A DNA stretch of 64,000 bases from an uncultured Muribaculaceae bacterium (GTDB lineage Bacteria; Bacillota_I; Bacilli_A; RF39; UBA660), in contig CAYVPV010000001.1 in the NCBI GenBank assembly GCA_964453925.1, positions 46,524 through 110,523 on the forward strand. The letters are read 5' to 3'. A program made the translations under genes and the position numbers. Below the pieces are notes generated by a model. It had not been told where the DNA came from and made no database searches. It worked only from the letters and a program-made list of their open reading frames with translations. Numbering within the stretch: position 1 is the stretch's first letter; each line of letters opens with the position of its first letter. Of the stretch, positions 3,962 to 4,137 are shown piece after piece.

Positions 3962-4051
3962 ATGTTTTATAAAGTTATAAAAACTAATAATACTAATCTC
4001 TTAGACCTATTATTACGACTCTTTAGTAATAGGTTAGTTTTGCGTGGATAA
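3962..4051 (+). CDS. Leu-rich leader peptide (29 aa, MFYKVIKTNNTNLLDLLLRLFSNRLVLRG)
   Basis: RBS aaaggatga upstream. Eight of 29 codons are Leu, including LL and LLL runs that overlap attenuator segment 1. Confidence 0.55.
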   Translation: MFYKVIKTNNTNLLDLLLRLFSNRLVLRG

Positions 4052-4069
4052 AACATTTAATTATAAATT

Positions 4070-4112
4070 AAAGACCTATTACTATGTTTAAGTGCAAGTA
4101 ATAGGTCTTTTT
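4070..4112 (+). terminator. attenuator terminator (segments 3:4) of the leuA-like leader
   Basis: Perfect 14-bp stem (4070-4083 with 4097-4110) plus a T-run. Segment 2 (4025-4034) is also perfectly complementary to 4074-4083, giving an antiterminator. Segment 1 (4005-4012) pairs with segment 2. Confidence 0.7.
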
Positions 4113-4137
4113 ATATACGAAAGAAGGAGAGATTAAG

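Follow-up and report, generated by a model that had tools for sequence, protein, structure and literature searches.

What controls the lone, short leuA-like gene of this window, and why should a leucine signal control it at all? The window, by which we mean the whole stretch of 64,000 nucleotides analysed here, belongs to a 1.37-Mb genome assembly (27% GC, 92.6% complete), and an earlier note on its sequence had proposed that a ribosome-mediated attenuator lies directly upstream of the gene. This switch is as the note described it, but a promoter (3795-3823) and a further switch, which we call element 1 (3833-3935), fall outside the coordinates that it gave. Our analysis suggests that the short leuA is probably preceded by two terminator switches in series, namely element 1 and then a classical ribosome-mediated leucine leader-peptide attenuator.

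The second switch starts with a leader open reading frame (ORF) that was found as claimed, with its own ribosome-binding site and 29 codons:

3947-3953, + strand: Shine-Dalgarno (SD)-like sequence of the leader ORF (GAAAGGA), 8 nt 5' of its ATG
3962-4051, + strand: leader ORF of 29 codons plus stop, encoding MFYKVIKTNNTNLLDLLLRLFSNRLVLRG; ATG at 3962-3964 and TAA at 4049-4051
3998-4021, + strand: putative regulatory cluster of Leu codons L13, L14, L16, L17, L18 and L20 (CTC TTA gac CTA TTA TTA cga CTC)

The leader ORF has eight Leu codons in all, six of which are gathered within nine codons at 3998-4021. Those at 3998-4015 lie on, or just 5' of, the first of four pairing segments (segment 1, 4004-4015), in agreement with the earlier description, and segment 2 begins at 4024. 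Among the 885 ATG ORFs of 12-45 codons in the genome for which an SD-like motif was required, only three, the leader ORF included, contain at least six Leu in eight codons.

The four segments that follow from the Leu codons to the gene are arranged as follows:

4004-4015, + strand: segment 1, pairing with segment 2 (12 bp, -11.0 kcal/mol)
4024-4035, + strand: segment 2, pairing with segment 1 or, as antiterminator, with segment 3 (11-12 bp, -15.8 kcal/mol)
4070-4084, + strand: segment 3, the 5' arm of terminator 2 or the 3' arm of the antiterminator
4097-4112, + strand: segment 4 (4097-4110) and U-tract (4108-4112), forming with segment 3 the predicted terminator 2 (-18.6 kcal/mol)

The pairings 1:2, 2:3 and 3:4 that had been claimed all exist, the second spanning 11-12 bp and the third 14 bp (4070-4083 with 4097-4110) plus the U-tract, and terminator 2 stands 25 nt 5' of the leuA-like ATG (4138). 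Segments 1 and 3 are near duplicates, and so are segments 2 and 4. Folding of 3950-4140, as the earlier note had suggested, gave a minimum free energy (MFE) structure composed of the 1:2 hairpin (12 bp) and the 3:4 hairpin, with z = -5.0 and none of 200 dinucleotide shuffles as good; likewise, none of 2000 shuffles reached the energy of the 2:3 duplex, -15.8 kcal/mol against a shuffled mean of -4.2. By the generally accepted footprint of a ribosome, stalling with the A site at any of codons 13-18 would cover segment 1 and leave most of segment 2 free, and a ribosome at the leader stop codon would either cover segment 2 or allow 1:2 to re-form. A simple terminator scan (loops of 3-8 nt) listed neither of the two leader terminators, in the case of 3:4 because its loop of 12-13 nt exceeds that criterion.

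We then have to ask whether the ORF and the pairings are kept together in related loci. For this comparison we used the eight loci encoding a short LeuA, whose leader peptides are:

Window: 29 codons, MFYKVIKTNNTNLLDLLLRLFSNRLVLRG (...TNLLDLLLRL...)
G022: 28 codons, MFYTVKENYTNLLNLLLRLFSNRLVLRG (...TNLLNLLLRL...), one codon shorter through an in-frame 3-nt deletion
G013: 29 codons, MFSKFIFNNNVNLLGLLLRLYGNRFILQC (...NLLGLLLRL...)
G020: 29 codons, MFYNFIVNNNINLLGLLLRLYGNRFILQC (...NLLGLLLRL...)
G054: 20 codons, MFNKFVFNNNVNLLGLLLRL (...NLLGLLLRL...)
L121: 18 codons, MKAYQNTILRLLGLLLRL (...LRLLGLLLRL)
L010: 19 codons, MKNIVVNVNSLLLALLLSF (...NSLLLALLLSF)
L011: 30 codons, MKKISSFNTNSLLLALLLSLKRNDKAYLCC (...NSLLLALLLSL...)

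The eight loci have in common an SD, an ATG, a Leu run overlapping segment 1, a hairpin of segments 1 and 2, and a 2:3 pairing with which the 3:4 terminator is incompatible. Each orthologous leader contains a run of five or six Leu, so that the loss of the leader ORF or its Leu codons in relatives, which the earlier note had named as evidence to the contrary, was not seen at any short-LeuA locus. Automatic stem picks at seven of the loci gave -10.3 to -12.4 kcal/mol for 1:2 and -12.9 to -18.6 kcal/mol for 3:4; the corresponding stems of the G022 locus (L002) were read by eye and stand outside these seven-locus ranges. The 2:3 duplex amounts to -12.6 to -18.3 kcal/mol across all eight, a value reached by at most two of 2000 shuffles, and when segment 1 is masked the nascent RNA adopts 2:3 in folding. 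Within the genus, 97-99% of the pair cells are kept, versus 30-59% with a slid partner. None of the four segments of L010 and L011 has the sequence of its counterpart in the window; the Leu run and the three pairings persist nonetheless, with six Leu again in frame on segment 1.

The reading frame itself leaves a trace in these alignments. The two Leu codons 5' of the 1:2 hairpin vary synonymously (CTC TTA to CTT CTA, that is, CTC to CTT and TTA to CTA), the one deletion is a multiple of three, and the N-terminal residues and the stop are free to vary, the latter from the 1:2 loop to a point past segment 2 (18-30 codons). It follows that translation across the Leu codons is conserved, and not the peptide product; this indicates that the frame would have to be translated across these codons, whatever peptide results. 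We thus regard it as hardly probable at all that the ORF is incidental and that the near-identical hairpins are a duplicated palindromic binding site for protein or RNA, or tandem terminators, operating with no translation. Such an origin would account for the near duplication of segments 1 and 3 and of 2 and 4; besides, UUA-rich stems in a genome of 27% GC will often read as Leu codons, and covariation within the genus is not significant. It would not account for synonymous variation outside segment 1, for an in-frame indel, for an SD and ATG at eight of eight loci, for a six-Leu run kept in frame on the dissimilar stems of L010 and L011, or for a Leu density found in only three of 885 comparable ORFs. 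The stem motif AGACCTATTA is no dispersed repeat or operator either, an idea ruled out by its mere eight matches in the 1.37-Mb genome, three of them in the leader and another within a coding region on contig C7.

A leucine leader-peptide attenuator at this position would operate as follows. The 29-codon leader would be translated co-transcriptionally. When charged tRNA-Leu is scarce, the ribosome would stall at the Leu codons at 3998-4021 and cover segment 1; 2:3 would then form, 3:4 would be blocked, and RNA polymerase would enter the gene. When Leu-tRNA is plentiful, the ribosome would run to the stop codon, covering segment 2 or letting 1:2 re-form, the 3:4 terminator would form, and transcription would end at about 4112.

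Attenuators of this kind are well known. One is leuL of the leu operon of E. coli and Salmonella (the Leu_leader family of Rfam). Likewise, a Leu-rich attenuator peptide belongs to the ilvDBNC-leuABCD-ilvA operon of S. aureus (PMC5794164), and candidate Leu leaders have been described in Actinobacteria (PMC1262725). The window leader shares with leuL and with the S. aureus leader a short SD-bearing ORF with a run of Leu codons, as well as an intrinsic terminator before the gene and a mutually exclusive antiterminator that would be selected by the stalled ribosome. It differs from both in having no sequence or covariance-model likeness to any Rfam leader, in that its target is a single orphan leuA without a feedback domain and not a biosynthetic operon, and in being preceded by a second, independent terminator switch. 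Indeed, the leucine leader families of Rfam (Leu_leader, Leu/phe leader and Termite-leu) gave no match in 3700-4200 at E up to 10, and no gathering-level match in L010, L011 or L121. Over the leader, Rfam searches at gathering level and at E up to 10 retrieved matches at chance level only (STnc370, mir-4041, Yfr10, snoR28 and the FdoG thermometer), all of them far below the cut-off.

The earlier note had also contrasted this leader with the T-boxes that usually control leu genes in Firmicutes and that it saw elsewhere in the window. T-boxes do occur in the window, with RF00230 matches at 42460-42671 (138 bits) and 22410-22591 (89.9 bits), as well as 5' of leuA in Peptoniphilus, and to this extent the contrast stands; it is, however, less unusual than stated, because a Leu leader-peptide attenuator is documented for the ilv-leu operon of S. 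aureus (PMC5794164). The leader cannot itself be taken for a T-box, since RF00230 has no match in 3700-4200 although the T-boxes of the window and of Peptoniphilus were detected. The T-box at 22410-22591 (E = 3e-18) scores just under the Rfam gathering score of 93 and would therefore be missed by annotation at gathering level. Short ORFs with 10-12 consecutive Leu codons (e.g. MILTNILSINLLLLLLLLLLPLGCKQ...) were observed 5' of full-length leuA in L033, L047, L048, L130 and L134, all from Fusobacteriaceae and related metagenome contigs, with shorter Leu runs in L184 and L199.

What, then, lies between the promoter and this attenuator? The upstream part of the leader consists of the following elements:

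3795-3823, + strand: promoter (TTGACA, 17-nt spacer, TAATAT, with TG before the -10 hexamer), the sole + strand promoter-like site before the gene
3833-3910, + strand: aptamer-like domain of element 1
3833-3838 with 3905-3910, + strand: P0
3840-3845 with 3865-3870, + strand: P1
3849-3852 with 3857-3860, + strand: P1b
3871-3874 with 3879-3882, + strand: P2
3886-3888 with 3899-3901, + strand: P3
3895-3935, + strand: predicted terminator 1, with stem AAGCACGGAGUCACUU / AAGUGAUUUGCGUGCUU and U-tract at 3931-3935

The promoter is present at the equivalent place in L002, L003, L004, L097 and L121. Element 1, of about 105 nt, occupies the space between it and the leader SD, has its own terminator, and finds no match in Rfam 15. 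AGUGAG, CCUACACG and ACGGAGUCAC are almost invariant; the consensus runs through AGUGAG, P1 with an inner hairpin, AGC and the 3' strand of P1, and then through P2 (GGGN...NCCU), ACA, P3 (CG-N...N'-CG) and GAGUCAC. In 60 aligned copies 95.6% of the cells pair, compared with 34-55% in slid controls, and compensatory changes affect 26 of the 31 pairs, the stem of P3 alone occurring in at least 13 variants. Pairing of the 5' AGUGA with UCACU would give a P0-like helix, and the P0/P3 fold is compatible with the alignment. The closing helix proposed by RNAalifold, GUG with the CAC of ACACG, was judged less likely than P0, although the alignment cannot choose between the two because both strands are invariant.

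The 5' arm of terminator 1 consists of the 3' strands of P3 and P0. For RNA up to 3910 the unconstrained MFE structure is the aptamer fold (-17.1 kcal/mol), and in the full-length element the terminator is favoured (-30.9 versus -21.0 kcal/mol), a predicted layout that is usual for a kinetically controlled ON riboswitch. Given these shared strands, stabilisation of the aptamer (P0, P1, P2 and P3) by some factor, most likely a small-molecule ligand, would prevent termination, and the element would act as an ON switch. As a conserved, covarying 5'-leader RNA whose expression platform overlaps its aptamer, element 1 has the features by which riboswitches are generally recognised; it appears to be an uncatalogued riboswitch-like family, and a good candidate for a new, or a strongly trimmed, riboswitch class.

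With a covariance model of element 1 (R1), matches were retrieved from 24 of 39 genus genomes; in the order as a whole they came from 48 of 301 genomes and 26 of the 127 genera sampled, all of them in one family. Among the short-LeuA loci the element is present in the cassettes of the genus and in L121, and L010 and L011 are without it. Of the copies for which a downstream gene could be detected, nearly all have a promoter on their 5' side and an SD and gene on their 3' side, on the same strand. The 41 non-redundant genes downstream comprise about 20 GNAT acetyltransferases of several kinds, and the remainder include six ABC ATPases, two PNP_UDP_1 proteins, an MFS transporter, a methyltransferase and the short LeuA. 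This order of promoter, element, SD and gene is not what would be expected if element 1 were bound by a regulator protein, or were an independent small RNA gene with occasional read-through of its terminator, and not a ligand-sensing riboswitch. We consider such alternatives rather unlikely, even if the element has a strong promoter and a terminator of its own, such that an RNA of about 105 nt would accumulate, even if the near-invariance of AGUGAG, CCUACACG and ACGGAGUCAC could reflect protein contacts, and even if the downstream genes are heterogeneous. The overlap of the terminator 5' arm with conserved aptamer strands is the standard layout of riboswitches, and known riboswitch classes sometimes occur, as element 1 does, in tandem copies; its layout also resembles that of ykkC subtype 2 aptamers.

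Tandem copies were seen in two forms. On another contig of the genome to which the window belongs (C11 of G000, 22810-24576, minus strand; L090 1311-3077), element 1 is found three more times in succession, every copy having a terminator and a downstream gene of its own. The proteins encoded are of 178, 270 and 158 aa; judged by eye, the 270-aa protein has an RpoA-CTD-like end and the 158-aa protein is GNAT-like. Back-to-back double copies precede ABC ATPase, GNAT and other genes in some genomes of the family (L215 1501-1722, L221 1501-1714, L223 1349-1610 and L224 1501-1750).

The likeness to ykkC subtype 2 riboswitches, which bind phosphoribosyl pyrophosphate (PRPP) or guanosine tetraphosphate (ppGpp) and for which RF00442 is the nearest Rfam model, extends to several features. 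The layout of element 1 is compatible with theirs as regards a P0-like pairing of the ends, a P1 with internal elaboration abutting P2, an ACAC junction, a short P3, a GAG motif, and a 3' strand overlapping the terminator; some gene associations also match, namely ABC ATPase operons and a branched-chain amino acid (BCAA) gene. Indeed, ppGpp riboswitches precede BCAA genes and natA-type ABC operons (PMC6003355). Element 1, however, is without the P1a/P1b region of ykkC and its UAGGGUUCCG...GGUCCGAGAG core, its P3 is CGU/ACG where ykkC subtype 2 has GGG/CCC, and most of its copies precede GNAT genes, which are unmentioned in the ppGpp riboswitch paper (PMC6003355). RF00442 gave no match to the region of element 1 (3700-4200) even at E = 10, and in the reverse search R1 aligned to a PRPP-type aptamer from the same start, if weakly (12.7 bits). 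Membership of ykkC is thus unsupported by covariance models in either direction, and with the core absent we speak of a resemblance only. A ykkC-like aptamer of 48 bits, below the guanidine-I cut-off, was found before a gene whose product has a PurC-like start in G364 (L226 1501-1595) and is probably a PRPP-type subtype 2 riboswitch.

With element 1 in place, transcription from the promoter at 3795-3823 would meet two independent intrinsic terminators before the gene, and two such switches in series would most likely constitute an AND gate. Comparable gates exist, in that ppGpp riboswitches (ykkC subtype 2a) and Leu T-boxes are combined in tandem before BCAA genes (PMC6003355, PMC9481103). In these tandems, as is predicted for the window leader, two independent terminator-based ON switches share one 5' leader of a leucine-pathway gene, one of them reading tRNA-Leu charging and the other being an aptamer, and the expected logic is AND. 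They differ in that the tRNA-Leu input would be read by a translating ribosome in the window leader and is read by a T-box in the ppGpp tandem, and in that the aptamer partner of the window leader is no recognised ykkC member. The terms 'leader peptide', 'attenuat' and 'uORF' are absent from the review of tandem riboswitches (PMC9481103). The genome encodes a full-length Rel and a second protein with a RelA_SpoT domain, and alarmone signalling is therefore possible.

What does this leader control? The gene reads as follows:

4124-4129, + strand: SD of the leuA-like gene (AAGGAG)
4138-5322, + strand: short LeuA of 394 aa, with an HMGL-like catalytic and an HCS_D2 accessory domain

The earlier description of a 394-aa synthase lacking the LeuA regulatory domain is supported by Pfam, by profile coverage and by alignment. 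Pfam finds only HMGL-like and HCS_D2 (residues 285-360) and no C-terminal LeuA_dimer regulatory domain; the NCBIfam equivalog NF002086 for isopropylmalate synthase (IPMS) scores 560.3 bits (cut-off 532) over profile positions 5-386 of 516, the end of the protein aligning with about position 386. Alignment with full-length relatives shows that the catalytic motifs LRDGEQSPG, HCHNDLG and GIGERAGN are kept and that the Leu-binding domain is cleanly absent. Among solved structures, those closest to it are IPMS catalytic-domain constructs and a plant methylthioalkylmalate synthase. By its sequence, then, the product is an IPMS-type enzyme with intact catalytic motifs and without the Leu-binding feedback domain; its substrate, like the ligand of element 1, is one that we infer.

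Proteins of this architecture are known elsewhere. A plant methylthioalkylmalate synthase (PDB 6e1j), a truncated IPMS construct from N. meningitidis (PDB 3rmj) and Leptospira LeuA2 (NCBIfam NF042434) likewise combine the HMGL-like barrel and the accessory domain with no C-terminal Leu-binding domain. The short LeuA does not group with any of these and branches inside bacterial LeuA, beside Peptoniphilus; it also differs from its regulatory-domain-less relatives in that its genomes are without LeuCD or LeuB. According to a preprint (bioRxiv 10.1101/2024.06.14.598950), plant IPMS remains active without the regulatory domain. Bacterial IPMS enzymes truncated into the accessory domain, on the other hand, lose activity (PMC9860122); unlike those inactive truncations, the short LeuA retains its accessory domain.

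Protein searches found the short LeuA in four of 25 genomes of the genus, a fifth carrier (G054) being recovered by the search for element 1. A search of 185,579 species representatives yielded only two more short forms, L010 (386 aa) and L011 (390 aa), the other 78 loci being about 500 aa or longer wherever the frame is complete within the locus. A scan of metagenomes with the protein added one more, L121; the other 79 metagenome loci scored lower and their readable frames were also of about 500 aa or longer. In the tree the eight short proteins fall together in a single clade (support 100/99), whose sister is the full-length LeuA of Peptoniphilus; there leuA has a T-box 5' and leuC- and leuD-sized genes 3'. 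For most pairs of short genes the ratio of nonsynonymous to synonymous substitution rates (dN/dS) lies at 0.09-0.25, and it never exceeds 0.42, with dS near or beyond saturation between lineages, from which we conclude that purifying selection has acted on the truncated form for a long time. On this evidence, the truncated orphan enzyme is maintained by selection and has a single origin, in at least three lineages.

These rates and this single-origin distribution are hard to reconcile with the cassette being a relic, that is, the attenuator and leading gene of a leu operon, acquired by horizontal transfer, truncated, and now functionless. We find this very unlikely, as reading frames are intact, the SD, leader and switch are conserved, and the HCS_D2 domain (residues 285-360), the loss of which impaired activity elsewhere (PMC9860122), is retained. 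The idea draws on the absence of pathway partners from the genomes, on the sporadic distribution within the genus, on the impairment of several bacterial IPMS enzymes by removal of the regulatory domain (PMC9860122), and on the state of the locus in G003, where element 1 and the early leader remain and the terminator and gene are deleted.

In that genome (L093 1501-1860) the cassette is decaying: element 1 and the first ~27 leader codons occupy the same insertion site as in G020, the 3:4 terminator and the short leuA are gone, and an HTH_3 gene follows. Downstream of the short leuA in G022 (L002 1238-1475), a short AT-rich stretch lies between two occurrences of one 24-nt palindrome, gagaataaacaaaagtttattctc, spaced by about 210 nt.

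That leuBCD are missing beside the gene, as had been noted, proved true of the whole genome as regards the families of LeuB and LeuC. A check of the window genome for leuB/C/D and ilv genes, suggested at the time, showed the LeuB, LeuC and IlvE families to be absent. In all, the LeuB/IDH (PF00180) and LeuC/aconitase (PF00330) families were absent from seven of seven carrier genomes searched, and the IlvE family (PF01063) from six of six tested; as positive controls, the Pfam models detected PF00180 and PF00330 in 14 of 14 reference genomes each and PF01063 in 13 of 14. A tblastn search with 628 ORFs flanking canonical leuA genes retrieved housekeeping genes only (FtsZ, SerRS, ArgRS and ABC ATPases).

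This orphan status, found in all carrier genomes searched, could also suggest that the signal is not leucine shortage as such. The leader might respond to uncharged tRNA-Leu produced by an inhibitor, e.g. an antimetabolite targeting leucyl-tRNA synthetase, or to translation stress, and together with element 1 turn on a LeuA-derived enzyme of defence or detoxification. The genes downstream of element 1 (GNAT, ABC, MFS and methyltransferase) do look like a detoxification or export set, and the cassette is accessory, being found in four of 25 genomes of the genus by protein search and in a fifth through element 1, and decaying in G003. The protein, however, is by its sequence a bona fide IPMS, above the equivalog cut-off and with all its catalytic motifs, and no detoxifying activity is on record for the IPMS fold. 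Moreover, L010 and L011 have the Leu leader without element 1, so that the link to the GNAT set is not universal. We thus hold a defence or detoxification role to be unlikely.

Several observations weigh against two serial switches with a classical leucine attenuator as the second. At equilibrium the 3:4 hairpin is at least as stable as 2:3, and the model therefore requires the kinetic coupling of transcription and translation that is common to all classical attenuators. Covariation of the segments did not reach significance inside the genus (one compensatory pair, matched by 101 of 500 shuffles), because all four are too conserved there; support for the switch comes instead from the two divergent lineages, L010 and L011, and from the energy calculations and shuffles. 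In element 1, likewise, P0 and the base of P3 show little covariation, being nearly invariant. Attenuator-like leaders of leuA and ilvB in S. coelicolor, when mutated, did not behave as classical attenuators (work cited in PMC1262725). Finally, it is not easy to see why Leu starvation should be the signal for an enzyme from which, in these genomes, no route leads to leucine.

Directly upstream of the cassette in the window, at 3000-3743, lies a type III toxin-antitoxin locus. Its promoter (3000-3028) is followed by 3.2 copies of a 34-nt repeat (3096-3205) and by an ORF of the ToxN family (3264-3743; Pfam PF13958, 3e-38). A gene for a protein with an SLT lytic-transglycosylase domain (5326-6504) begins 4 nt 3' of the short leuA, and at 7942-9336 a 464-aa protein is encoded with a weak match to ThyX only. 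Together with the upstream ToxIN locus, these genes give the neighbourhood the look of an accessory or mobile region.

What is new here is not the kind of attenuator. It is a leader family without an Rfam counterpart, the joining of a translated attenuator to an aptamer-type switch, and the target, a LeuA that has no feedback domain and is maintained by selection in genomes without the LeuB, LeuC and IlvE families. A further-reaching reading, which we offer tentatively and regard as possible but doubtful, is that an unrecognised riboswitch class heads a regulon of genes for GNAT acetyltransferases, for exporters of the ABC and MFS types and for other modifying enzymes, throughout a family of gut Bacillota with small genomes, and that it has here been wired to a Leu-codon sensor, the pair gating a LeuA derivative recruited outside leucine synthesis. 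If the LeuA derivative was recruited elsewhere, candidate roles would be protection against an inhibitor of leucyl-tRNA charging, or the synthesis of a 2-alkylmalate for exchange with neighbouring cells.

For the biology of these bacteria, the locus provides a well-supported leader-peptide attenuator outside the model organisms, in an uncultured gut lineage with small genomes, its 2:3 logic kept across divergent sequences. Element 1 occurs in about a fifth of the sampled genera of the order, and its link in series with a translated attenuator would add an architecture to the tandem RNA logic gates. The gene thus presents a paradox: it is predicted to be ON when charged tRNA-Leu is short and encodes the first enzyme of a pathway that is otherwise missing, yet it is under purifying selection. 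Its solution may lie in a new activity for the IPMS fold, in metabolic exchange within the community, or in a stress response that is read through Leu codons.

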